A stretch of 64,000 bases of DNA from Candidatus Shapirobacteria bacterium (GTDB taxonomy: Bacteria; Patescibacteriota; Microgenomatia; UBA12405; BS750m-G30): the NCBI GenBank assembly GCA_043817235.1, contig JBDRHA010000007.1:73212-137211 (forward strand), given 5' to 3'. Position numbers and translations under genes: made by a program. The notes below the pieces were generated by a model. It was not told the DNA's origin. It was given only the letters and a program-made list of their open reading frames with translations, and did no database searches. This document shows, one piece after another, positions 9,888 through 38,429 of this stretch (its first letter is position 1; the number at the start of each line of letters is the position of its first letter).

Positions 9888-11083
9888 GATTCTCTAAAAA
9901 AATTATTCTTTTTTTGATCCTTGCTTCAGTTTTGTTTTCCTGGCCTTTTGGCATCCAGGGTGAGGATTCAGACGAAAAAACGACCTTGCTCGAAAACCAA
10001 ATTCAAGAATACACCCAAAAGTTAAACGAGCTGGGAAAACAAAAAAGTACATTAAGCAATGAAATTGCTATTATGGATTCCCAAATCCAGCTTACGGCTC
10101 TAAAAATTCAGCAGACCCAGGGATCTATTAATTTATTAGAAAAGCAAATTGGGGAGTTGGGCGAAAAAATCAGTGAACTAAACATCTCTCTAGATAATCT
10201 ATCTTTAGTTTTCTTGCAAAGAGTATCGGAAAGTTATAAGTTTCAGTCAACCTCTCCGTTTTCTCTGTTTCTCTCTTCTTCCAGCTTTGCTGATTTTTAT
10301 CGGAAGCTTCAATATCTAAAAGCTTTACAGCTTAATGACCGGGTAGTAATGGTTCAGCTGGAAGAAACTCGTTCAAGTTTTGACCAGCAAAAGAGCCAAA
10401 GGGAAGAAAAGCAAGCGGAGCTGGTTAATTTAAAAACTACTTTGGATAGCCAAAAGAATTCTTTAGAAAGCCAAAAATCTCAAAAAGACTATCTTTTGCA
10501 AATTACCAAAAACGACGAAAAGCGTTATCAACAGTTGCTTTCCTCTGCGCGGGCAGAATATGAAGCGATTCAAGCAGTTTTGGCCGGAGCGGGAAATGAA
10601 ATTGAAGTGGGGAATGTTTCCAAGGGCGAGCAAATAGCGAGTATTATTAGCGGCAATTCGTGCAATTCTTCGGGAGCCCATTTGCACTTTTCGGTTACCC
10701 AGGGAAACAATATTGTTAACCCCTTTAATTATTTGAGCTCAAGCGTGGAGTGGAGAAACTGTTCTGGATATAGTTGCGGAGGAGAAGGAGACTCTTTTAA
10801 CCCCGCAGGCTCTTGGGATTGGCCAATCAATTCGCCTATTACCTTCACCCAAGGTTATGGCAATACCTGGGCGGTTAATCACCAATCTTGGCTTCCTTAT
10901 GACTTTCACAACGGCATTGATATTTTTAATGATAGTTTGGCGGTAAAAGCAGTAGCGGACGGGAAGCTATATCGAGGAAGCTATACCGGAATTGGAGGTT
11001 GTGCCTTGCGCTATGTTCGGCTTATTCACAAAGACTCTGATGTTGAATCTTATTATTTACACATTAACTATACTAAGTTTTAG
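9884..11083 (+). CDS. EnvC-like coiled-coil M23 metallopeptidase (murein hydrolase activator / DD-endopeptidase)
   Basis: A signal peptide and long coiled coil are followed by an M23 domain (..SGAHLHFSV.., ..HNGIDIF..). The gene is adjacent to ftsEX. Confidence 0.8.
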   Translation: MRFSKKIILFLILASVLFSWPFGIQGEDSDEKTTLLENQIQEYTQKLNELGKQKSTLSNEIAIMDSQIQLTALKIQQTQGSINLLEKQIGELGEKISELNISLDNLSLVFLQRVSESYKFQSTSPFSLFLSSSSFADFYRKLQYLKALQLNDRVVMVQLEETRSSFDQQKSQREEKQAELVNLKTTLDSQKNSLESQKSQKDYLLQITKNDEKRYQQLLSSARAEYEAIQAVLAGAGNEIEVGNVSKGEQIASIISGNSCNSSGAHLHFSVTQGNNIVNPFNYLSSSVEWRNCSGYSCGGEGDSFNPAGSWDWPINSPITFTQGYGNTWAVNHQSWLPYDFHNGIDIFNDSLAVKAVADGKLYRGSYTGIGGCALRYVRLIHKDSDVESYYLHINYTKF

Positions 11084-11117: not shown

Positions 11118-11312
11118 ATGAAGGCTAAAGATAAAGAAAGGTTTTTTCAAATTTATGCCAATCTTCCTTTTAATATTCGGAATGGCGAAATTATTGCAGT
11201 AGTAGATGGTGAGCCGTTTACCTGGAATGCGGCCAGACTAGAAGTTGAAAATAATACCAAAAAAGGTGAAGAGATTTTGGGAAAGCTAATTAAATTAAAA
11301 ATAATCAAATAA
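11118..11312 (+). CDS. Hypothetical small protein
   Basis: The only evidence is a 64-aa ORF in a tight gene string. Confidence 0.3.
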   Translation: MKAKDKERFFQIYANLPFNIRNGEIIAVVDGEPFTWNAARLEVENNTKKGEEILGKLIKLKIIK

Positions 11313-11313
11313 G

Positions 11314-11565
11314 ATGAAGAATAATAGAAAAATTCAAAAGCGTTGCGAAAACAAGAGGGTTGAAGAAGAAGTGCGTGAGCTGATAATCGAACGAATTAAG
11401 GCGGCTTCTGGTGATTTGGGAATTTCTATAGGTTCGGATGAATATACCAAAGAGGAGATTTTAGAGAGTGTGGAGGAGGGCAGTGAAATAGGTCAAGAAA
11501 TTATGGACGCTCAGATGGAATATCTTCGGGATATGGCTGAAGGCAAAATATATAAAGATGAATAA
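11314..11565 (+). CDS. Hypothetical small acidic protein
   Basis: The 83-aa ORF is translationally coupled to its neighbours. Confidence 0.35.
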   Translation: MKNNRKIQKRCENKRVEEEVRELIIERIKAASGDLGISIGSDEYTKEEILESVEEGSEIGQEIMDAQMEYLRDMAEGKIYKDE

Positions 11566-28687: not shown

Positions 28688-30157
28688 TTAATTACGAAAA
28701 CAGATTTTATCTACGTCCAGAATGCCGTCTCCTACAGCCTCAAGACAAAAGGTGTGGGCTATGTCCGAAAAGTTGTAGTGTCTGATTACCTGCCACTGCA
28801 TAGTTGTTGAATAGTTGCTTATAGTATCAATTAATTTTCCGTCCAAGTAAACTTCAGACGTGCCTCGATTTTTGAAAGTGATAGTGTACCAATCAACAGA
28901 TGATCCAGTAAAGGGAAGGCAGGCTTTGGACCCGGCTGTATTGGTAAACCGCCAACTGCCTCCGCTGGCCTGATCCAGAGTACCCAACAGCCAGTTGCCG
29001 CTAAAATCTACTTGTTCAGCCGTATTTTCGTAACAAACTTCGGCACTGACATCGTCGGTCGGAGTGGGTGTTGCGGTTGGTATGGAAGTAGGCGTAGGTG
29101 TAACAATTACAGAATCAGCTAGGCAAAATTTGTCTACATCAACATAGCCATTTCCAACCACTTCCACACAAAAAATATGGCTGGCTTGGCTAAAAGAATA
29201 ATGCTTGAGCACCTGCCACTGCATGGCCGGCGAATAATTATTAACTGTGTCTATAAGCTGACTGTCAAGATAAACTTTGGCTGTACCCCGGTTTTTGTAA
29301 GCGACGGTGTACCAGTCAAGCCAAGAGCCGCTGAAATTCACACAAGACCGGTTTCCGGTTTGGTTGGTAAAACGCCAACTGCCGTTACTGGCATTTTCGT
29401 GTGTTCCTGTAAACCAATTGCCGTCCCAAGTAATTTGAACATCATTGTCTTCATAGCAGGAGGCTGTATTGGGATTGGGAGTAGGAGTAGGTGTCAGGCA
29501 ATCCAAACAATTGTTTACTATTTTGACTGTTGCCTCAAAGCTCAGGGCAATTCTTTTATATCCGGAAGCATTGGGGTGTAAAGCATCGCCAAACAGGATC
29601 GGGTTGCCGCCTTTAGCGTAATCGCCGGCGTCCAAAAGCAGTCCGGCCCAGGGATTTTGGGTGTAGTAATCTTCGCGCGCGATATTTAACCGCAGTTCAT
29701 CCACTAGAGGTTTCATGCACAGCGTGTCGCATTTTGGATCGCCCAAATTGGGAGTAACAGCGCTGAGGATTACTTTTGCGCCATACGCTTTAGCTTTATT
29801 AACAATATTCTGGATTTCTTGGCGCACGGCCGCTGGTTTTTGATTTTTACGCATATCATTAACGCCAAGCATGATGATAACAATATCCGGTTTATCTTGA
29901 GCCAGCCAAGCATCTGTGTTAGCTAGGACTTGGTCAGCTGTCCACCCTGATTGACCGCGATTAATTACTTTGTAGCTGGAGCCAAGTAATGACTGGAGTT
30001 GGCTGGGGTAAGATTTATTGGCTGGCGCTCCAGCACCGTAAGTAATGCTATCGCCTAAGCAGGCAATAACAGTTTGATTGATAGCCAAAACAGGTGTTTT
30101 TTGCCAAAATAAAAATACCAGCAAGCCCAATGTAATATGTTTTAAGAATTTAATCAT
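28688..30157 (-). CDS. Secreted SGNH/GDSL hydrolase with two tandem ~130-aa beta-sandwich (CBM-like) repeats separated by PT-rich linkers
   Basis: A signal peptide and the GDSL blocks are present (ACLGDSITYG, MLGVNDM, GDALHPN). The ~130-aa repeat, SCYEDND..WRFTNQTG..DWYTVAYKNRGTAKVYLD and AEVCYENTAE..WRFTNTAG..DWYTITFKNRGTSEVYLD, occurs twice. Confidence 0.75.
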   Translation of the reverse strand: MIKFLKHITLGLLVFLFWQKTPVLAINQTVIACLGDSITYGAGAPANKSYPSQLQSLLGSSYKVINRGQSGWTADQVLANTDAWLAQDKPDIVIIMLGVNDMRKNQKPAAVRQEIQNIVNKAKAYGAKVILSAVTPNLGDPKCDTLCMKPLVDELRLNIAREDYYTQNPWAGLLLDAGDYAKGGNPILFGDALHPNASGYKRIALSFEATVKIVNNCLDCLTPTPTPNPNTASCYEDNDVQITWDGNWFTGTHENASNGSWRFTNQTGNRSCVNFSGSWLDWYTVAYKNRGTAKVYLDSQLIDTVNNYSPAMQWQVLKHYSFSQASHIFCVEVVGNGYVDVDKFCLADSVIVTPTPTSIPTATPTPTDDVSAEVCYENTAEQVDFSGNWLLGTLDQASGGSWRFTNTAGSKACLPFTGSSVDWYTITFKNRGTSEVYLDGKLIDTISNYSTTMQWQVIRHYNFSDIAHTFCLEAVGDGILDVDKICFRN

Positions 30158-30257: not shown

Positions 30258-30335
30258 CGGAGCGTAGCGCAGTTGGATTAACGCGCCCCGATCGGGTCGG
30301 GGAGATCGCGGGTTCGAGTCCCGCCGCTCCGACCA
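30258..30335 (+). tRNA. tRNA-Pro (anticodon CGG), genomically encoded CCA
   Basis: Manual cloverleaf folding gives an acceptor stem CGGAGCG/CGCTCCG, an anticodon stem CCCCG/CGGGG with loop AUCGGGU (U33, anticodon CGG, G37), a T-arm GCGGG-TTCGAGT-CCCGC, and a 3' ACCA. Confidence 0.8.
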
Positions 30336-30588
30336 TACAGGACAAAGCCCTTGTCCATAAAGTCTTTGAAGGGTTGATTTAGCTGATATGAAGCCACTTT
30401 CTTATCTTTCAGAGTAAAGTTCAAGAAGATTTTGGAGATAATCTCATCCTTACCTTGCATAGGCTTTGTTTTCCTCAAGACATCGGGCAATTGTTTGAAA
30501 AGTTCGACAAACTCAGAATACTTGTAAATAAAGGTCTCGTTAGCTTTGAGAGCCTGTTTAATCTTAGTAATTTTATCTTCAATATCTT

Positions 30589-32025
30589 TTAATTCCTTGT
30601 CCTTGGCCATAAGGTCTTTCTTAAAGATAGTCCTAAACTCCGATTCTTTCTCCTCTCCTCAAGTATTATGTTTTTAATATCTTTAATTCTTTTGTCAACG
30701 CCTCTTTTTTGCGCCTGTAGAGAGCGCAAGAGACTATCTAACTCCTTTTTCTTTTCTCTACCAACCTTCTTCATTTCTTTGACATAATGGTCGTAAATAT
30801 CCTTTGAAGCGAAATTGAATTTATCCAAAAAGTCATAAACAAAATCTAAAACAACTCTAGCCCTGACATTATGCTTAACCTTCCTGCCTGATTTTTGCTT
30901 GATTGGCTTGCACCCTTCCATGTCACATCTGTAAAAGTAATACCACTTTTTGTCATCTTTAGTTTTCTTTGAGGTTAAGCCTGAGCTCATGGGTTGGCCA
31001 CAATGTCCACAAATAACTTTACCCCTGAGAAAATCTGCTTTTGTAGCACCTAATCTTGTCCCCCTAATCTTTGACTTAAAGACTTTGGTTATGTCACTTA
31101 ATTTGTTGACACTTAAAAACTCTTCAACAGTAACTATCGGAACATAGTCGTAGACCTCAACAAGGTTAGCGACATGCTTGCCTTGGCCATACTGCATAAC
31201 ACCAGCATAGAAAGTATCCTTGAACATCTCTGATAGCCTTTTAACATTCATTTCAAATGGCTTGTGTGTAATCTTGCCTATACCATAAGCTCTGTGATAA
31301 TTCTGGTCTGTTAAATACTCTGAAATCTCGGCAAGAGTCTTGTTTTCAAGGCGCATTAACCAAGCCTTCTTGATTAAATGGAAGTTATTACCATCTGGTC
31401 TTAGTAGTTGGTTTCTGTCTCGATAGTACCCATGCTTGGCGGTAGTAAGCCACTTACCTTCTTCAATACTTCTTCTAATGCCTCTAGTGACAACATCGCT
31501 AAGCTGGTCTGAGTATTGTTTAGAAAGGACAAAAGCAATCCCTAGCAACATCTTGCCAGAGGCATTGTTATCAAAAGTAAAATTGACAAATTGAAGGTCT
31601 TTGATAATTCCCTTATCAAGTAGGTCGATAATTTCGCCAGCATCTCGCATGTTGCGACTAAGACGGTCTGGGTGCCAACAAATAACACCATCAAACTTAC
31701 CACCATTAAGGTCATCAATCATTTTTCTGAACCGAGGTCTTATGTTTGGTTCTTTGGCGCTTTCGCTTTCTCTAATTGGCCTGCCGACTACGGTTAGGTT
31801 CCGATTCTCAGCCATCTGTTCACAATCGGCTATCTGGTCTCCAAGGCTCCGAATCTGCCTTTCCTCACTTTCAGTGCTTTTTCTGGCATAGATAACATAA
31901 CGGAATTGAGTAGGGTCTTTAACCTCGCTCTCACCTCTAATGCTTTTAAGAAGATTGGCAAGGTCTGCTGGTGTATGAGCAGGTTTATCATTCATGTTCG
32001 TAATTCTCTTAATTCTCATGCTCAA
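30589..32025 (-). CDS. Large serine recombinase (phage-integrase type)
   Basis: The resolvase catalytic domain has the YARKSTESEERQ serine motif. A recombinase domain and a zinc-ribbon (CGHCGQPMSS...YYFYRCDMEGC) follow, with a C-terminal coiled coil. The protein may continue in another frame (see findings). Confidence 0.85.
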   Translation of the reverse strand: MSMRIKRITNMNDKPAHTPADLANLLKSIRGESEVKDPTQFRYVIYARKSTESEERQIRSLGDQIADCEQMAENRNLTVVGRPIRESESAKEPNIRPRFRKMIDDLNGGKFDGVICWHPDRLSRNMRDAGEIIDLLDKGIIKDLQFVNFTFDNNASGKMLLGIAFVLSKQYSDQLSDVVTRGIRRSIEEGKWLTTAKHGYYRDRNQLLRPDGNNFHLIKKAWLMRLENKTLAEISEYLTDQNYHRAYGIGKITHKPFEMNVKRLSEMFKDTFYAGVMQYGQGKHVANLVEVYDYVPIVTVEEFLSVNKLSDITKVFKSKIRGTRLGATKADFLRGKVICGHCGQPMSSGLTSKKTKDDKKWYYFYRCDMEGCKPIKQKSGRKVKHNVRARVVLDFVYDFLDKFNFASKDIYDHYVKEMKKVGREKKKELDSLLRSLQAQKRGVDKRIKDIKNIILEERRKNRSLGLSLRKTLWPRTRN

Positions 32026-32313
32026 AAAAACAAAAGAGCTTAGTATCAGTATAACTCAAAAACTACTTGATGAACAAAGCCAACAACGCTAACCGATAGT
32101 AATCCTATAATGGTTGACTAAAATGATGTTATTTGATATATTACTAGGGTAAATTGGCCTTACTCAGTAAAGCTTAATTGTTCTTTAACATATCCCTATA
32201 GCAGAGAGAATTGTGTGTATTGACAGCCCACTAAATGCTGTGGAGCAACAGTCTATACTCACTGACTCTTTGTTATTTTTCGGTTCAATCCAAAACCACA
32301 CAGGAGGTGTGAA

Positions 32314-32562
32314 ATGGAAGGTCAAGTAATGCTTGATGCCGTGTCTGTCACTGTTGGAGTTGTTACTCTTGTGTTGATTCTGGCCCATATGTTCACCAAG
32401 AACAAAAACAATACCCTCGCGACGATGAAGGTGGTTTTTATGGTGGTAATGGCCATTCTCAACGTACTCGATGCAGACATTTTCTTCACAGTCCTCTGGA
32501 CAATTCTGGCTTGTCTCAATATCGTGTTGATTGCCATACGCATCAACACCAAAAGCCAGTAG
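32314..32562 (+). CDS. Small two-TM membrane protein (hypothetical)
   Basis: A strong SD (ACAGGAGGTG) lies 6 nt before the ATG, and the product has two hydrophobic helices. This + ORF is preferred over the overlapping minus-strand ORF 32185..32652, which has no RBS and is Cys/His-rich with low complexity. Confidence 0.45.
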   Translation: MEGQVMLDAVSVTVGVVTLVLILAHMFTKNKNNTLATMKVVFMVVMAILNVLDADIFFTVLWTILACLNIVLIAIRINTKSQ

Positions 32563-32955
32563 GCCGAACAGTAACACAAAGGAGCAAGGAGTAGGTTCAC
32601 ACCTACACGATACACTTAACTGTATATCGTCATCACTTGCTCCATTTTTCATACAAAAAATTAGAAAATAAAGAATTGAAGAAAAGTGTCATAATATGCG
32701 GGTAGAAAATTGACACAGACTCTTGCTTCAAAAGAGTACCTCTAAGAGTTCTTAACCTTAAATACAGCAAAACTAAAAGAGTTAGACAGGATTTAGCAAA
32801 ATTGACCCTCTCAAAGCACATCCCAACATATGAAAATGCCTCATATGATGAGGGAAATTCAAAGACAGTTAACGTGGTTCAACTACATAAAAATCTAAAC
32901 CCTGGCATACCCCCATACTATGGTTCGATGACTTTTAGGCTAATACAAAAGAAGG

Positions 32956-33312
32956 CTATTTTTTGATTACTTTGAGCTTGGGTGAAACATACTCAACTTG
33001 TTCTTCAACAACAATCTGCACATACTCATCACCAGATTCTCTAATAACTTTGATTTTTGATTTAGGTGGCTTATCAACTCTAGACATATTAATACCACTC
33101 AAGCTTTTTTGTACCTGAGACAAAGTAACCTTGGTTCCATCTGGAAGCAAAACTTCATAATCAGACATATTGGGTGGCACATCAGGAGCTACAATCTTGG
33201 GTGTTTTAGGCTCTGAAACGCTCCCAGAAGGCTTCTGAGCTGGTTTGGCAGTCTCTGGCTTTATCTCATCCACTAAGTCGGTTAAGTTGTCTTTTTTGAC
33301 TTTCTGGTTCAT
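32956..33312 (-). CDS. Hypothetical protein (Pro/Lys-rich N-terminus)
   Basis: A 118-aa ORF with no recognisable domain. Confidence 0.35.
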   Translation of the reverse strand: MNQKVKKDNLTDLVDEIKPETAKPAQKPSGSVSEPKTPKIVAPDVPPNMSDYEVLLPDGTKVTLSQVQKSLSGINMSRVDKPPKSKIKVIRESGDEYVQIVVEEQVEYVSPKLKVIKK

Positions 33313-33501: not shown

Positions 33502-35727
33502 GTGTTTTTTACTGTTTTGACCAGTCTAAACACTAAGAAAATGGACAACGAATCAACACCTATTTCTCCCAGGGAAACTGAAAAACAGTCACGGTTCAAA
33601 TTTGCTCTTAGGAGCTTGCGAAGAAGCTCAGCAAGAGATATTGGAATTTATGATACTGTATCTAATTTAAGAGATATAAAAGAAAATATAGATCGTTTAA
33701 CAAAAGAGGAGCGGGAGGCGGCCAGAATAGCACTTAAAAAAATTCTTATTATTCTGCCGCCATGGCGGAGAGGTGCGAATTTTGTTGTTCAAAACCTTGA
33801 AAATGTAGCTTATACTCCAGAGGAACAAACGAACTTGGTCCAACTAAGACAAGAAGCGCTAGCAAGGCAGGCCCAAGTCGAGCAAGAAATAGCAGAAGGG
33901 GCTTCCCCTTGGTTGGCTAGGGTGAAACATAATGAACAAAATGCCCAAAATCCAGTTGCGGTTGGGTTTTACCAAATGCCAGATGGTCAAATAAGAACTA
34001 TTTTTGGCCGGCGATATTTTCAGTCTAAAAGACAAATAGAAACCAAGGACTTGTTTTTTGGCGGACGGAGTGAGGGCAAGGAAGTAGGCCTGCTTTCTAC
34101 AAAATTTCAAGCTGTAGTTGAGCAAGAACTTATAAAAAGTAAACTTTTTGATTTATTGCCCGAGGATTTAAGAGAACGATTCGGGAGAGGAGAAATTTTA
34201 ATAACTGGGAAACAAGACCTCTACGATTTAAGCGAAACTGAAATTGAAAGTTTAGCTGCAAGCACAGACATTGATGCTCTTGCTAAACATATTGAAAAGA
34301 AAATTGCCAGTGCCGGAAAAGAGGGACAATATTACCTGCTTTTTCAAAATGAATATCTCGATGATGAAACTGGTCGGACTGGAGTTTTGATGATTATTAA
34401 AAACGGAAAGGCAGAACCCGTGATCATTATAGTGGGAGATAAACAGTTTGTGGTTGAGATAAAGGGTTGTGGGAAAAAGGGTGGTGGATTTGGCCGAATG
34501 CACCACCGCACCGGAAGAGATATTATTACTGGTGGTGCAGAAAGAGAACAAGCGATAAATGAATTTGACCGACTATCTGAGATGACAGACGAAGATGCGC
34601 CAAAAGCTGTTGCGAGTATTCTTTTTGATAATCACGGCTATCAGCAGGGATATATATTGAGACTAACGCCTTCAACCGTTAGGGCTTCCTACTCAGGTAA
34701 CGAGGTTTATCCTGCCATAGATAGCCATGAACAAGTTTCTAGAGTATTAGATATTTATGCACAGGAATTGGCTCGACAGGTTTTCGCATCAAATCCGAAA
34801 ATTTTAGATCGTTCATCACACTCGGAAAATATTTTACTTTGGGGAGACGGAAAGCATACTTTTACTGATTTTTCCGATCATGTTGCGTTTTCTGATAATC
34901 ACTTTCCTCACGAAGAAAGCCATGGGGGCTATATGACACCACGGCAAATGCTTGAATATTATGTAAAAATGGTAGAGGAAATTCCCGGGTACAATGCTGA
35001 AAGAGATAAAAAGGTATTCCTCGAAGCATTGGGAAAAGCATTTGCCGCAGAAGGCTGCGATGTTTCTCTTGATGAAGCAGAGGGATATGTCGATATAACA
35101 AAAAGATTGTGGGAGGGCGGAATAGCTTATCAAGTTTTCTCTGCAAAGCGAACGAACAATTATAGAGCAGATGGTGTTGTGGAGGAGTTTAGAGAATCTG
35201 TTACTACCGATGAATATCATCAAAGAGAATTGTCTTTAGCGTCTGAACAAGCATTTGTTGAAAAATACGAAAATGGATTTCAAAAAATGCTCACAGCGCT
35301 TGATATTCTTCAAAGAGTTAGTGCTCCTGAAGTAGCAGATATTCGTGGATTGGCAGAAAATAGAGACTTGTCGGGATTGTTAAAAAATCTTGATAGGCTT
35401 TTTACCATGCTTGGCGAGAGCAAAGAAAATCTCAGTAAAAGCGAAAGAAGCAGCATATATCAAGCAATATTTTATTTTTCTGGTTTAGAATATACTTTGG
35501 CAAGAACAGTGAGGCGATATTTAGAGCATGAGCATGATGTTGTCTCTTCTGCACGAAATTCCGCTCCAGCAAGTGATAAAATAGCCTTAGCCAAAGCAAG
35601 AAACGAAATTGATGGCAAGAAGCAAGAACTTGAGACAATTTTAAACAATCCAAACGAATTGTTCGATAAGTTCACTGATATAAGTTGGGTTCAGAGATTT
35701 ATATCATTAAGTTTTTATCAAAACTGA
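33502..35727 (+). CDS. Large hypothetical protein (741 aa) with a glycine-rich loop GCGKKGGGFG ... HHRTGRDIITGG; no family assignable by eye
   Basis: A long uninterrupted ORF in the tRNA/recombinase island. It has an N-terminal coiled-coil region and a central segment (..IIIVGDKQFVVEIKGCGKKGGGFGRMHHRTGRDIITGG..) reminiscent of a nucleotide-binding P-loop or kinase G-loop. An alternative start is at 33541 (MDNEST). Confidence 0.5.
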   Translation: MFFTVLTSLNTKKMDNESTPISPRETEKQSRFKFALRSLRRSSARDIGIYDTVSNLRDIKENIDRLTKEEREAARIALKKILIILPPWRRGANFVVQNLENVAYTPEEQTNLVQLRQEALARQAQVEQEIAEGASPWLARVKHNEQNAQNPVAVGFYQMPDGQIRTIFGRRYFQSKRQIETKDLFFGGRSEGKEVGLLSTKFQAVVEQELIKSKLFDLLPEDLRERFGRGEILITGKQDLYDLSETEIESLAASTDIDALAKHIEKKIASAGKEGQYYLLFQNEYLDDETGRTGVLMIIKNGKAEPVIIIVGDKQFVVEIKGCGKKGGGFGRMHHRTGRDIITGGAEREQAINEFDRLSEMTDEDAPKAVASILFDNHGYQQGYILRLTPSTVRASYSGNEVYPAIDSHEQVSRVLDIYAQELARQVFASNPKILDRSSHSENILLWGDGKHTFTDFSDHVAFSDNHFPHEESHGGYMTPRQMLEYYVKMVEEIPGYNAERDKKVFLEALGKAFAAEGCDVSLDEAEGYVDITKRLWEGGIAYQVFSAKRTNNYRADGVVEEFRESVTTDEYHQRELSLASEQAFVEKYENGFQKMLTALDILQRVSAPEVADIRGLAENRDLSGLLKNLDRLFTMLGESKENLSKSERSSIYQAIFYFSGLEYTLARTVRRYLEHEHDVVSSARNSAPASDKIALAKARNEIDGKKQELETILNNPNELFDKFTDISWVQRFISLSFYQN

Positions 35728-35770
35728 TTACTCTAAAAAAACTACTAGATGAAAAAGGAGGTGATTAATT

Positions 35771-36235
35771 ATGATTAACCCAGAAGGTAAAGAACGCCAA
35801 GCTTCAGAATTTGATAATATTTTATCTGGGATTGATAGAAAAAAAGAATTAATAGATAAAGAATTTCAAGAAAGAAGGAAAGCGGCTGATTCTTTAGTTA
35901 GAGTTATGGATGATATCCTTCCAAAAGAAGGATCGTCAGCCATGATGGGCCCATTCAAATTTATTCCGGCTACACTCTTGAAGGAGGGTGTGACGATTGA
36001 AAGATGCACTGGTCTTTATCCTCCCATAGGCGAGAGAGTACTTAATTATGAGGTTCGTTTGGCAACAGGGCGATCAAATAGAGAGGTTTTCATTGTATCT
36101 AGAGTTAATGAAGAGACAACCGTGCCTTTAATTCTTGATGTTGGGCAGGATCAATATGGGCGACCCATGGATAAATTTAGAATCGCTTCAGTAGAAGAGA
36201 CAGAGGGAGTTAGAGAAATAGTCAGTAAGCTGTGA
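35771..36235 (+). CDS. Hypothetical protein (154 aa), likely co-transcribed with the 741-aa gene
   Basis: A perfect SD (AAAGGAGGTGATTAATT) precedes the ATG, and the gene starts 43 nt after the upstream stop. Confidence 0.5.
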   Translation: MINPEGKERQASEFDNILSGIDRKKELIDKEFQERRKAADSLVRVMDDILPKEGSSAMMGPFKFIPATLLKEGVTIERCTGLYPPIGERVLNYEVRLATGRSNREVFIVSRVNEETTVPLILDVGQDQYGRPMDKFRIASVEETEGVREIVSKL

Positions 36236-36537
36236 AGGGCCGACTTTTTGAGAGTATTCGCCAAGCTGTTTCCCAGATTCCTCAAGGCAAAGTGGCAACA
36301 TATGGGCAAGTGGCTCGGTCGGTGGGAACGAAAGATGCGCGAAAAGTTGGCTGGGCAGTTTACGGCAACAAAGACCCGGAAATTCCCTGCCACCGGGTAG
36401 TAAAAAAAGGCGGCTATTTAGCGGAAAACTTTTCCGCTGGCGGGTGGAAAGAGCAAAAAAGAAGATTAAAAAAAGAAGGGGTAAAATTTAAAAAAAATAA
36501 TCAAGTTAATTTAGATCTTTGCTCTTGGGAAATTTAA
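36232..36537 (+). CDS. MGMT-family protein (O6-alkylguanine-DNA alkyltransferase DNA-binding domain only)
   Basis: A helix-turn-helix (VATYGQVARSVG) and an intact PCHRVV active-site motif are present. At 101 aa it consists of a single domain. It uses a GTG start overlapping the upstream stop. Confidence 0.7.
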   Translation: MKGRLFESIRQAVSQIPQGKVATYGQVARSVGTKDARKVGWAVYGNKDPEIPCHRVVKKGGYLAENFSAGGWKEQKRRLKKEGVKFKKNNQVNLDLCSWEI

Positions 36538-37548
36538 GTTTGGTAGACGATCCAAGAGATCTAAGTTTTTGACAAATTCTTTTCTTTGAAATTTGAAGTA
36601 ACCTGTAATGGCAATCATAGCCGCATTGTCAGTTAAAAGAGAGGGAAGGGGGATAAAAACAGGGAAGTTGTTTGCATCACCAACTTTTTTGACCTCTTTT
36701 TGCAGAAGCTGGTTATTAATAACTCCGCCGCCTAAAAATATTTGCTTCGGTTTGGTTTTTTTAATAGCCAGCTGTAATTTCAAAATAATGGAGTGAACCA
36801 AAACTCTTTCAAAGGATGCAGAAAAATCGGCTAAAAATCTTTTATCTTTTAGTTTTCTTTTAGGAATTTTTCTTAATTTATAAAAACAAGCGGTTTTTAA
36901 ACCGGAAAAACTGAAGTTTAGACTTTGAGAGCGGGCCATTGGGATCGGTAAATCAAATTTTAGTGGATTGCCCTGGGCCGCTAACTTAGAAATTTCCGGG
37001 CCGCCGGGATAAGGAAGGTTAAGCATTTTTGCCACTTTATCAAAAGCTTCACCGGCTGCATCGTCTAAAGTTTCTCCAAGAAGCTGATACTGACCGATTT
37101 TTTCCATCAATACTAATTGCGTATGACCGCCGGAAACAAGTAATCCGAGAATTGGATATTTTATTTTAAAATTTTGAGCTAAGCAGGAAAGAAAATGGCC
37201 TTCCATATGATTAATTGCCAGCAAGGGCTTTTGATATTTTCTGGCTAATTCTTTTGCTTTTTTTAAGCCTACTTCCAGAGCAATTGATAAACCGGGACCT
37301 TGAGTAACCGCAATAGCCTGAATATCCTGCCAGTCTTTATCGGCTTTTTTAAGGGCCTGCTTAATTACCGGGTTAATCTTTTTTTCATGCTCTCTTTTGG
37401 CTAAATTAGGAACTACTCCGCCCCAGGGCTGGTGAATTTTTATTTGCGAGTAAATAATGTTACTTAGTACGCGTTGTCCTTGGGTGACTGCAGCTGCAGT
37501 TTCGTCGCAAGAAGTGTCGATGCCGAGTATAATAATTTTGCTTTTCAT
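36511..37548 (-). CDS. tsaD: tRNA N6-adenosine threonylcarbamoyltransferase
   Basis: The protein reads GIDTSCDETAAAV ... AINHMEGHFLSCLA ... SGGVINNQLL, matching the Kae1/TsaD family. Confidence 0.9.
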   Translation of the reverse strand: MKSKIIILGIDTSCDETAAAVTQGQRVLSNIIYSQIKIHQPWGGVVPNLAKREHEKKINPVIKQALKKADKDWQDIQAIAVTQGPGLSIALEVGLKKAKELARKYQKPLLAINHMEGHFLSCLAQNFKIKYPILGLLVSGGHTQLVLMEKIGQYQLLGETLDDAAGEAFDKVAKMLNLPYPGGPEISKLAAQGNPLKFDLPIPMARSQSLNFSFSGLKTACFYKLRKIPKRKLKDKRFLADFSASFERVLVHSIILKLQLAIKKTKPKQIFLGGGVINNQLLQKEVKKVGDANNFPVFIPLPSLLTDNAAMIAITGYFKFQRKEFVKNLDLLDRLPNLNFPRAKI

Positions 37549-37573
37549 CAGAATGACATATTATACTCAATTT

Positions 37574-37966
37574 ATGGATCAAGATTGCGTATTTTGTAAA
37601 ATTATTCAGGGTAAAGTTCCTGCTTATAAAATTTACGAAGATAAAGATTATTTGGCTTTTTTGGATATTAACCCCTGGGTGGAAGGCCATACTTTGGTGA
37701 TCCCTAAAAAGCATTATCGCTGGGTTTGGGATGTTAAAGACCTGGGCGGTTATTTTAAAATTACCGGTAAAATAGCCAATCAGTTGCGCAAAATTTTTAA
37801 GACAGAATTTGTGATGAGCTATATTTATGGTTATGATGTGCCTCATGCTCATATCCAGCTTTTCCCTGATGCACGCGGGAAAATCGCTTTATTCCCTAAA
37901 GAAAAACTGGGAAAATTGACTGAAAAAAAGGGCAAAGAATTAGCCAGAAAAATTTCTTTTAAGTAA
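37574..37966 (+). CDS. HIT-family (histidine triad) hydrolase
   Basis: The protein reads CVFCKIIQGKVPAYKIYEDKDYLAFLDINP ... HAHIQLFP. The track ORF starts at 37457, but the ATG at 37574 (MDQDC) avoids overlap with tsaD. Confidence 0.75.
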   Translation: MDQDCVFCKIIQGKVPAYKIYEDKDYLAFLDINPWVEGHTLVIPKKHYRWVWDVKDLGGYFKITGKIANQLRKIFKTEFVMSYIYGYDVPHAHIQLFPDARGKIALFPKEKLGKLTEKKGKELARKISFK

Positions 37967-38429
37967 TAGTAATTTTTCGTGACTGAGGGCTTAGGTGCTG
38001 AAAGTTTACTTTAATTATTTTAACATTCTTGTCATTGGCTATTTCCTTTAAAATATTACCTGTTTTATTTACCCATTCAATAGCCAGAATATTGCCGGGT
38101 AATAACATTTTTTCCAGTTGAAGATCGGCTATTTCTTGGGGATCGTCTAATCTCCAGGCATCAATATGATAAAGAAGAGCTGTTTTATTTTTTAGAGAAT
38201 TTAGAGAATAAGGATGCTCGTGGACCAAGATAAAGGTAGGTGATTTAATTGCTTCTTTAATTCTTAATGCTTGGCCAAGGCCTTTAACAAACCGGGTCTT
38301 GCCGCTTCCAAGCTCACCTTGAAGAGCGAAAATCAAGCATTTACTTTCTAGATTCTGCCAATTATCTTGAATCAGCTTTATCGCTAGGGCTTGCGTTTCA
38401 TTAGTCGAATGAGAAGTTATAGTTTTCAT
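37959..38429 (-). CDS. tsaE: tRNA threonylcarbamoyladenosine biosynthesis ATPase
   Basis: A P-loop is present (LQGELGSGKTRFVKGL) with ..SPTFILVHEHPY... and ..HIDAWRLDD.., matching TsaE/YjeE. Confidence 0.8.
   Translation of the reverse strand: MKTITSHSTNETQALAIKLIQDNWQNLESKCLIFALQGELGSGKTRFVKGLGQALRIKEAIKSPTFILVHEHPYSLNSLKNKTALLYHIDAWRLDDPQEIADLQLEKMLLPGNILAIEWVNKTGNILKEIANDKNVKIIKVNFQHLSPQSRKITIT

Follow-up and report, generated by a model that had tools for sequence, protein, structure and literature searches.

We have shown that a 64,000-nucleotide stretch of DNA from Candidatus Shapirobacteria (contig JBDRHA010000007.1, forward-strand positions 73,212 to 137,211; hereafter the window) carries a gene for a 728-aa protein with a protein-kinase-like (PKL) core of an atypical kind. 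The PKL bilobal fold of this core is firmly established, as judged from a predicted structure and from sequence profiles. The protein belongs to a rare family in which the residues that bind ATP and metal in kinases are preserved, and the aspartate of the HRD motif is found in none of the aligned relatives. Our tentative reading, to which we give somewhat less than an even chance, is that the protein would be an ATP/Mg-dependent transferase of AMP or another nucleoside monophosphate (NMP) rather than a kinase.

An earlier reading of the sequence alone (the initial annotation) had described a 741-aa protein with a glycine-rich loop. The open reading frame (ORF) is indeed present on the forward strand (33502..35727, 741 aa from a GTG codon), and it contains the quoted loop (VVEIKGCGKKGGGFGRMHHRTGRDIITGGAEREQ); the length, however, is likely to be 728 aa. 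The identical protein in NCBI, a 'hypothetical protein' of a Candidatus Shapirobacteria metagenome-assembled genome (MAG), has 728 residues, and for those homologues whose N-termini the alignment shows, the first residue is the Met that corresponds to the ATG at 33541. For these reasons the true gene most likely occupies 33541..35727 (+), and the mechanically called ORF reaches further up to the GTG at 33502. A database search returned 56 homologue clusters in total (the identical protein and 55 more) with E-values from 0 to 1e-83, so that the 728-aa gene is, judged by its homologues, a real one. None of the 56 clusters carries a precomputed Pfam domain, and all of those with a name are called 'hypothetical protein'. 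The 728-aa protein ends in ...SLSFYQN and has Cys at positions 310 and 506 only.

The fold was assigned from an AlphaFold2 model of the full-length protein, built on 42 homologues (mean predicted local distance difference test score, pLDDT, 91.9; predicted template modelling score 0.88), and from a separate model of the core (aa 131-565, pLDDT 91.2). When the full-length model was compared with the PDB by Foldseek, the matches were of the protein-kinase fold (AAK1, PknB, Aurora, VRK1, PAN3), with YdiU/SelO at ranks 2, 3 and 5. The core model gave 64 PDB matches with E<=1e-3, and the 50 listed were protein kinases, the PAN3 pseudokinase and YdiU, with probabilities of 0.97-1.0. A Foldseek search of predicted viral structures (BFVD) returned the kinase fold again. 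Among the top 50 core matches, YdiU had the highest query-normalised TM-scores (0.36/0.34) and the most aligned columns (391-421), making it the most extensive structural match, and its root-mean-square deviation from the core (8.5 A) was one of the lowest. Sequence comparisons pointed in the same direction. A profile of 86 distant relatives searched against PDB sequences matched GAK (E=6.8e-4), followed by StkP, BIKE, CDK4 and AAK1, always on the segment that spans alphaE, the catalytic loop and DFG. The same segment was found when the superfamily core was aligned by hhalign with a PknB profile (P=2.6e-4, probability 42%).

Four regions can be distinguished in the protein, all encoded on the forward strand. 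The first 130 residues (33541..33930) form a helical region, with helices at 10-129 of the model and 31% Asp, Glu, Lys or Arg, which agrees with the charged N-terminal part noted in the initial annotation. Residues 131-255 (33931..34305) form, in the model and the alignment, a beta-rich extension with two helices; its conserved motifs are NPxxVGFYQ...F.SKRQ and LLPEDLR, and it is kept in some distant relatives too. The PKL catalytic core follows at aa 256-480 (34306..34980), as placed by Foldseek against PDB and BFVD, by the profile search of PDB sequences and by hhalign. The C-terminal domain, aa 481-728 (34981..35724), is all-helical, with conserved motifs EIPGY, AYQVF and Y..HE.D. The helical C-terminal third with conserved acidic residues that had been predicted is thus borne out by the model, in which residues 467-727 are helical and Y660, H663, E664 and D666 are conserved.

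The alignment of homologues that the initial annotation had proposed as a route to invariant residues identified such a set. A family-profile search of 1.84 billion cluster representatives yielded 185 with E<=1e-3; the region common to them covers profile positions ~255-550, and conservation was counted in 157 aligned cores. The four residues that define the PKL active site, namely the beta3 Lys (K308), the alphaC Glu (E341), the catalytic-loop Asn (N430) and the DFG-type Asp (D443), are invariant or nearly so, as is R381. At the position of the nucleotide-binding hairpin between beta1 and beta2, where kinases have a GxGxxG loop, the protein reads GRTG (34372..34383), which pairs with GDGRG of SelO in an extended hhalign alignment; the Arg of this GR(T)G motif is found in 153/157 relatives. 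The only GxGxxG of the 728-aa protein is GCGKKG, residues 309-314, directly behind the beta3 lysine. It lies in the loop that had caught the attention of the initial annotation, KGCGKKGGGFGRMHHRTGRDIITGG (34462..34536). In the model, strand 301-308 ends at K308 and is followed by this loop and then by helix 335-346, which bears E341. We therefore assign the loop as the beta3 lysine plus a Gly/Arg-rich insertion between beta3 and alphaC, an assignment that also agrees with conservation and with the SelO alignment. Its E-x-K-G-x-G motif is strongly conserved (E in 151, K in 155, and the two Gly in 149 and 154 of the 157). It had been noted that the loop fits no Walker A and no canonical kinase G-loop, and this is correct: a regular-expression search of the 728-aa protein found no Walker A (GxxxxGK[ST]), and GxGxxG stands after the lysine. 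The accompanying comparison with a G-loop or P-loop does not hold; the insertion is of the SelO type. A P-loop (Walker A) reading was rejected, the motif being absent and the fold that of a kinase, and an ATP-grasp reading was rejected on motif and fold.

E341 (34561..34563), the predicted alphaC partner of K308, is invariant in the set labelled A1, near-invariant in A2 and aligned to SelO E130. Further on, RLTPSTVR (34660..34683) holds the arginine pair R374/R381, which lies in the highest-confidence block of the SelO hhalign alignment and corresponds to R170/R177 of SelO in E. coli numbering (R176/R183 in P. syringae). In this R-L-x-P-S-x-x-R motif the first R and the P are each present in 154 sequences and the second R in 157/157. 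The initial annotation could recognise no HRD/DFG arrangement, and a regular-expression search confirms that literal HRD and literal DFG are absent from the 728-aa protein; their equivalents can nevertheless be aligned. HMMER pairs ILDRSSHSENILLWGDGKHTFTDFSD with IIHRDLKVENLLL...KLCDFG of GAK and StkP, and likewise ILDRSSHSENILLW...TFTDFSD with the same kinase segment, with Ser at the position of the HRD Asp. The catalytic loop DRSSHSEN (34807..34830) thus has S425 in place of the aspartate, followed by E429-N430, and the DFG equivalent TDFSDH (34864..34881) supplies the metal-binding D443 and a second conserved acidic residue, D446. The H-x-E-N motif has H in 131, E in 134 and N in 155 of the 157, and T-D-[FY]-x-[DE] has D in all 153 sequences with a residue at this position and D or E at +3 in 146. 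The HRD-Asp column itself is occupied by S (83), N (21), A (17), C (6), G (5) or T (5), together 137/157, and by Asp in 0/157. One subfamily reads 'HRN..NN', an explicit change from HRD to HRN. Since the ATP/Mg-binding set is constrained while the base for phosphotransfer is absent throughout the superfamily, an active enzyme with non-canonical chemistry is indicated.

SelO/YdiU (PF02696, UPF0061) is a known kinase-fold enzyme that lacks the HRD aspartate. The group that it transfers to a protein side chain is AMP or UMP instead of phosphate. We compared the window protein with the E. coli SelO of the annotated K-12 genome and with a SelO profile built from 80 metagenomic relatives. Five motifs come in the same order in both proteins: GDGRGILL of SelO corresponds to TGRTGVLM of the window protein, HLKGAG to EIKGCG, the segment after KGAG to FGRMHHRTGRDIITGGAE..NE, MRVAPSHLRFG to LRLTPSTVRAS, and HGVMNTDN...LDYGP to RSSHSEN...TDFSD. 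Accordingly, the two share a beta3 Lys within K-G-x-G followed by a Gly/Arg-rich insertion of the 'LKGAGxTPYSR' type, an alphaC Glu, an R-x-x-[PA]-S-x-x-R arginine pair after beta5, an acidic residue plus Asn in the catalytic loop, and the metal-binding Asp of D-[FY]-x. In both, the core is extended on its N-terminal side and followed by a helical C-terminal domain. When the 157-sequence core was aligned with the SelO profile by hhalign, 81 columns from KGxG via alphaC to RxxPSxxR were matched (P=7.4e-4, probability 26%), and a relaxed realignment was colinear across all five motifs. The score of 30.5 compares with 19.2+-3.2 (maximum 26.3) for 60 block-shuffled SelO profiles and with 16.5 for the reversed profile. 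A second subfamily gave P=3.8e-3 and a probability of 9% over 202 columns that include the catalytic loop, and in distant family members the SelO hidden Markov model (HMM) marks 'LLIRLSPSSIRFGFYEN' and 'GFRHGNVNSNNM'.

Several observations weigh against a specific relationship with SelO. The Pfam and NCBIfam SelO models matched neither the protein nor its 86 relatives, and a SelO HMM of our own scored no member above 8.3 bits. The close family on its own gave no core match by hhalign, either to the SelO profile or to the single SelO sequence, so that the modest signal obtained with the SelO profile, which the initial annotation had suggested trying, comes from the broad superfamily profile only. 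The best probability of 26% is no better than that reached with an ordinary Ser/Thr kinase profile (42%); this comparison is not quite even, as the PknB control alignment is narrow (about 2 effective sequences). In the Foldseek search with the core model, canonical kinases have better E-values than YdiU, which ranks 49-50. E429 is also the usual glutamate of 'KPEN' in ordinary kinases and is not specific to SelO, and the C-terminal redox Cys/Sec motif of SelO is missing from the 728-aa protein. The two proteins differ further in that their identity is only ~10%; SelO HMMs do not detect the window protein; neither the YSGHQFG motif nor the CxxS/Sec redox switch of SelO occurs in it; Glu replaces the Asp before the catalytic Asn, and an additional acidic residue stands at DFG+3; the window protein exceeds SelO by ~250 aa and has a helical N-terminus unrelated to it; and its gene is a rare accessory one, whereas SelO is a widespread housekeeping gene. 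Taken together, the motifs and the modest statistics suggest kinship with SelO specifically, and no HMM match places the protein formally in the SelO family. The N-lobe looks SelO-like and the C-lobe looks like that of a generic kinase.

No characterised family was found to match the protein over its full length by family-library, HMM or structure searches, as the initial annotation had supposed. Pfam (a 2025 copy), NCBIfam (2026), PADLOC and PHROGs gave no significant match for the 728-aa protein, nor for a 154-aa ORF downstream and a 118-aa ORF upstream of it. Among the 86 distant relatives, Pfam and NCBIfam identified no family, only scattered weak matches to Bud32, RIO and APH, and the canonical kinase HMM (Pkinase, PF00069) matched neither the query nor any of these relatives. 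Although the kinase fold and the idea of an atypical kinase-fold transferase are both known, the family itself is not covered by these four libraries, and a literature search, which was narrow on this point, found no paper that describes it.

Kinase-fold proteins without the catalytic aspartate have repeatedly shown unexpected chemistry, as in AMPylation by SelO, UMPylation by YdiU, glutamylation by SidJ and RNA capping by NiRAN. Ordinary kinases are not known to have an equivalent of the RxxPSxxR pair and the KGxG insertion. In SelO, ATP binds in a flipped orientation, and its buried gamma-phosphate is held by K113, E136, R176 and R183 (PMC8097203); Mg is bound by N253 and D262, and there is no HRD Asp (PMC8097203; PMC3281104). 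For YdiU, the D256A mutant was reported to be inactive, and K107A, E130A, D246A/N and N247A are among the mutants constructed (bioRxiv 10.1101/692707). Because the arginine pair and the KGxG insertion of the window protein correspond to the elements with which SelO buries the gamma-phosphate, binding of a flipped nucleoside triphosphate (NTP) would be the most economical model. We predict that ATP or another NTP would bind with Mg or Mn, its beta and gamma phosphates buried against K308, R323/R326, R374 and R381, and that N430 and D443 would hold the metal. D443, or else D446 or E429 nearby, could then activate a substrate hydroxyl, so that an NMP (AMP or UMP) would be moved to a protein hydroxyl and pyrophosphate would leave. 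The helical N- and C-terminal domains may select the substrate or regulate the activity.

The best placed of the other explanations, although we consider it rather unlikely, is true phosphotransfer to a protein or small-molecule substrate, with ATP in the canonical orientation and D446, E429 or H427 as a non-canonical base. Like the Ser/Thr protein kinases (PF00069; GAK/AAK1/BIKE of the NAK family, PknB and StkP), the window protein has a bilobal fold, and its '..H.ENlll....TDfsD' aligns with 'HRDLKxENLLL....DFG' of these kinases. The best Foldseek E-values belong to active Ser/Thr and Tyr kinases, and the sequence and profile matches to GAK, StkP and PknB fall on the catalytic loop and DFG. 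K, E, N and D are all conserved, the conserved acidic D446 lies three residues past the DFG Asp, and some 'pseudokinases' have proved to work without an HRD aspartate. However, the HRD Asp is absent from every one of the 157 relatives, its column being mostly S/N/A/C/G/T. In the comparisons made, the RxxPSxxR pair and the KGxG insertion align only with SelO, whereas the matches to ordinary kinases are confined to alphaE, the catalytic loop and DFG and do not cover the invariant arginines. A few distant members also weakly match models of small kinases (Bud32, Rio1, SrkA, ThiK and APH(6); best NCBIfam E=3.6e-5), which would again be in keeping with phosphotransfer. Families of the Bud32/RIO/APH type are known to keep their catalytic Asp (HGDxxxxN). 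That Asp is absent from the window family, only ~2/86 relatives match any such model and the window protein matches none.

We regard as improbable a different ATP-dependent chemistry on the kinase fold, such as SidJ-type adenylation-dependent ligation or glutamylation, NiRAN-type RNAylation or GDP transfer, or the use of NAD. In its favour are the atypical fold, the loss of the catalytic Asp with retention of the metal ligands, and the large extra domains around the core; YdiU-NAD complexes are among the best structural matches in the PDB, and in one giant relative the core is fused to GNAT, ARMT1-like and FBPase-like domains. The kinase-like domains of the SidJ glutamylase and of nidovirus NiRAN have been reported to glutamylate or to transfer RNA instead of phosphorylating. 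No specific sequence or structural match to either was obtained, and in BFVD a fragment of a coronavirus replicase appeared only at rank 46 (E=0.057, probability 0.16). Less probable still is a catalytically dead pseudokinase that would bind nucleotides as a scaffold or sensor. The protein has no canonical catalytic Asp, and the PAN3 pseudokinase is among the structural matches, but K, E, N, the DFG-Asp and both arginines are kept almost perfectly across ~185 clusters, down to <20% identity, and such conservation is typical of an active site under selection.

The initial annotation had also proposed a co-transcribed partner, and here the 154-aa ORF has to be considered. It lies at 35771..36235 (+), starting 43 nt after the stop of the 728-aa gene, and is preceded by the Shine-Dalgarno sequence AAGGAGGTGAT (35755..35765, +), an 11-nt match. 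Among the starts of ORFs >=100 aa this is the longest anti-Shine-Dalgarno match in the window, so both the spacing and the claim of the strongest such site were accurate. No terminator-like site was found in the 43-nt spacer, and the ORF is plausibly co-transcribed with the 728-aa gene. As a conserved partner, however, it fails. The only match to the 154-aa protein among 5.8 billion proteins was itself, and the ORF is missing from all 15 other homologue loci compared, including those of relatives 72-75% identical to the 728-aa protein. In addition, the next downstream gene is on the opposite strand in 6/10 annotated loci, from which it follows that the homologue is typically monocistronic. We conclude that the 154-aa ORF is strain-specific cargo, and a two-gene system is not supported. 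A toxin-antitoxin or defence module made of the two genes is accordingly very unlikely: the 43-nt spacer without a terminator, the strong ribosome-binding site, the adjoining serine recombinase and tRNA, and a helix-turn-helix (HTH) gene of the XRE type that abuts one homologue (locus L001) and overlaps another (L005) would fit it, but the 154-aa ORF has no homologue and is absent from close relatives, neither PADLOC nor PHROGs gave a match, no relative was found on viral contigs, and most homologues are monocistronic between housekeeping genes.

Immediately downstream, at 36232-36537, lies a gene for a 101-aa protein that consists only of the MGMT DNA-binding domain and has a PCHR active-site motif. 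Its GTG start overlaps the TGA of the 154-aa ORF (GTGA), and owing to this overlap the 728-aa, 154-aa and 101-aa genes may form one transcript.

Regarding the wider neighbourhood, the 728-aa gene is located between a tRNA-Pro(CGG) gene (30258-30335, +) with a large serine recombinase on one side and MGMT-like, TsaD, HIT and TsaE genes on the other. The recombinase (478 aa; Resolvase, Recombinase and Zn-ribbon domains) follows directly after the tRNA at 30589-32025 on the reverse strand. The tRNA and the recombinase mark a probable small integrative island carrying the gene; direct repeats of the att type were not found for it in the sequence up to 37600. Neither a paralogue of the 728-aa protein nor a canonical SelO is present in the window. 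A mechanically called ORF at 30278..30610 (-) runs antisense across the tRNA and is probably spurious. The stretch of ~1.2 kb that separates the kinase-like gene from the recombinase (32100-33312) holds only short, overlapping ORFs of low confidence, among them the 118-aa Pro/Lys-rich ORF at 32956..33312 (-), which has no family match. Before the tRNA, at 28688-30157 (-), is a gene for a 489-aa secreted-looking hydrolase of the GDSL/SGNH type, which has two tandem C-terminal modules of ~110 aa with Thr/Pro-rich linkers between.

The genes TsaD and TsaE, of the pathway for N6-threonylcarbamoyladenosine (t6A), and a HIT-family gene lie just downstream of the 728-aa gene (36511-38429 of the window). 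At other loci, the homologue of L007 abuts Sua5/TsaC (10176-10784), and that of L102 has a HIT gene ~1 kb downstream (11118-11504). In archaea, Kae1/TsaD has the kinase-fold protein Bud32 as its partner, and HIT enzymes can hydrolyse adducts of AMP with protein or lysine. Nevertheless, we consider the proximity of TsaD, TsaE, HIT and Sua5 genes to be probably coincidence or residual synteny.

To look for a wider context, neighbouring ORFs were clustered for the window and 15 other homologue loci, two of which (L001 and L091) represent a single contig. None of the neighbour families is kept throughout these loci. Only the large serine recombinases recur in three (the window, L006 with two copies, and L092/L100, with two copies in L092); apart from the pair on one contig, other shared neighbours recur in at most one further locus, such as the HIT-domain protein shared by the window and L096 and the NAD-epimerase-like protein shared by the window and L007. 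The annotated neighbourhoods differ in every genome, and include RecA/RecX with a pyrophosphatase, SecA, ribosomal-protein clusters, glycosyltransferase clusters, an insertion sequence (IS) transposase of the IS1595 type with HTH_17 and GIY-YIG genes, a type IV secretion system (T4SS) block, and an XRE-HTH gene with DUF3800 and MazE. The family therefore behaves as a single-gene accessory module, located in a different place in each genome and sometimes within recombinase, IS or T4SS islands. The XRE-type genes noted above are both on the same strand as the homologue: in L001 (129-335) the gene lies 12 nt upstream, and the one in L005 (8240-8482) overlaps the homologue at its 3' end. Such a layout, seen in 2 of ~12 distinct loci, is reminiscent of HipB/HipA. 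The T4SS block of L005 (1-5814), in a 137-kb metagenomic contig, is divergent from the homologue and looks like a complete conjugative system (TrbC, TrbL, PrgI, TraC, VirB4-like, M23 peptidase and TraG-like).

The family is rare. A search of one genome each of 185,579 species gave 9 loci only, and a scan of viral contigs found no relatives. The named members come from MAGs of Patescibacteria (the candidate phyla radiation, CPR), Saccharimonadales, Omnitrophota and Babeliaceae; for CPR and Saccharimonadales these are lineages that for the most part have not been cultured. Third-party-annotation MAGs with close homologues (L090, L093-L096), one of them a single 1.32-Mb contig, are labelled 'uncultured Gammaproteobacteria bacterium', a label that we judge unreliable. 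The core domain also occurs in giant proteins of 2543-4668 aa (P0086, P0120, P0061 and P0142), at least one of them from Omnitrophota. In a 2897-aa Omnitrophota protein it is combined with GNAT, ARMT1-like and FBPase-like (FBPase-glpX-like) domains, and in a 4668-aa protein with leucine-rich repeats; no other domain was recognised in those of 2543 and 3082 aa. Two further proteins, of 1475 and 2671 aa (P0184/P0195), combine the core with a MutS domain V ATPase in one chain. A 1199-aa MutS_V protein is encoded 1.4 kb downstream of the homologue on a Levybacteria contig (L003, 9602-13201), with a GIY-YIG gene between; a link between this neighbour and the P0184 fusion was rejected, as 23% identity and E~1e-5 reflect only generic ATPase similarity.

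Omnitrophota have been described as ultra-small bacteria that depend on a host, and predatory bacteria have been reported to contain giant genes (PMC10066038; bioRxiv 10.1101/2023.11.21.568195). It is possible, though on balance doubtful, that the superfamily of ~185 representative clusters is a new catalytic branch of the kinase fold, with flipped-nucleotide NMP transfer or some other chemistry, and would be used by ultrasmall bacteria that depend on hosts as a mobile effector or conflict enzyme, in the form of a free-standing protein of 730 aa or of a module within giant proteins.

In conclusion, this study describes a well-conserved family of kinase-fold proteins without the catalytic aspartate, which moves about as a lone gene and also forms part of giant proteins. 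The 728-aa protein, for which there is a confident model and a set of about eight invariant residues, is a testable target. Its characterization may reveal a new protein-modifying activity and could give insight into how these organisms interact with their hosts or with mobile elements.

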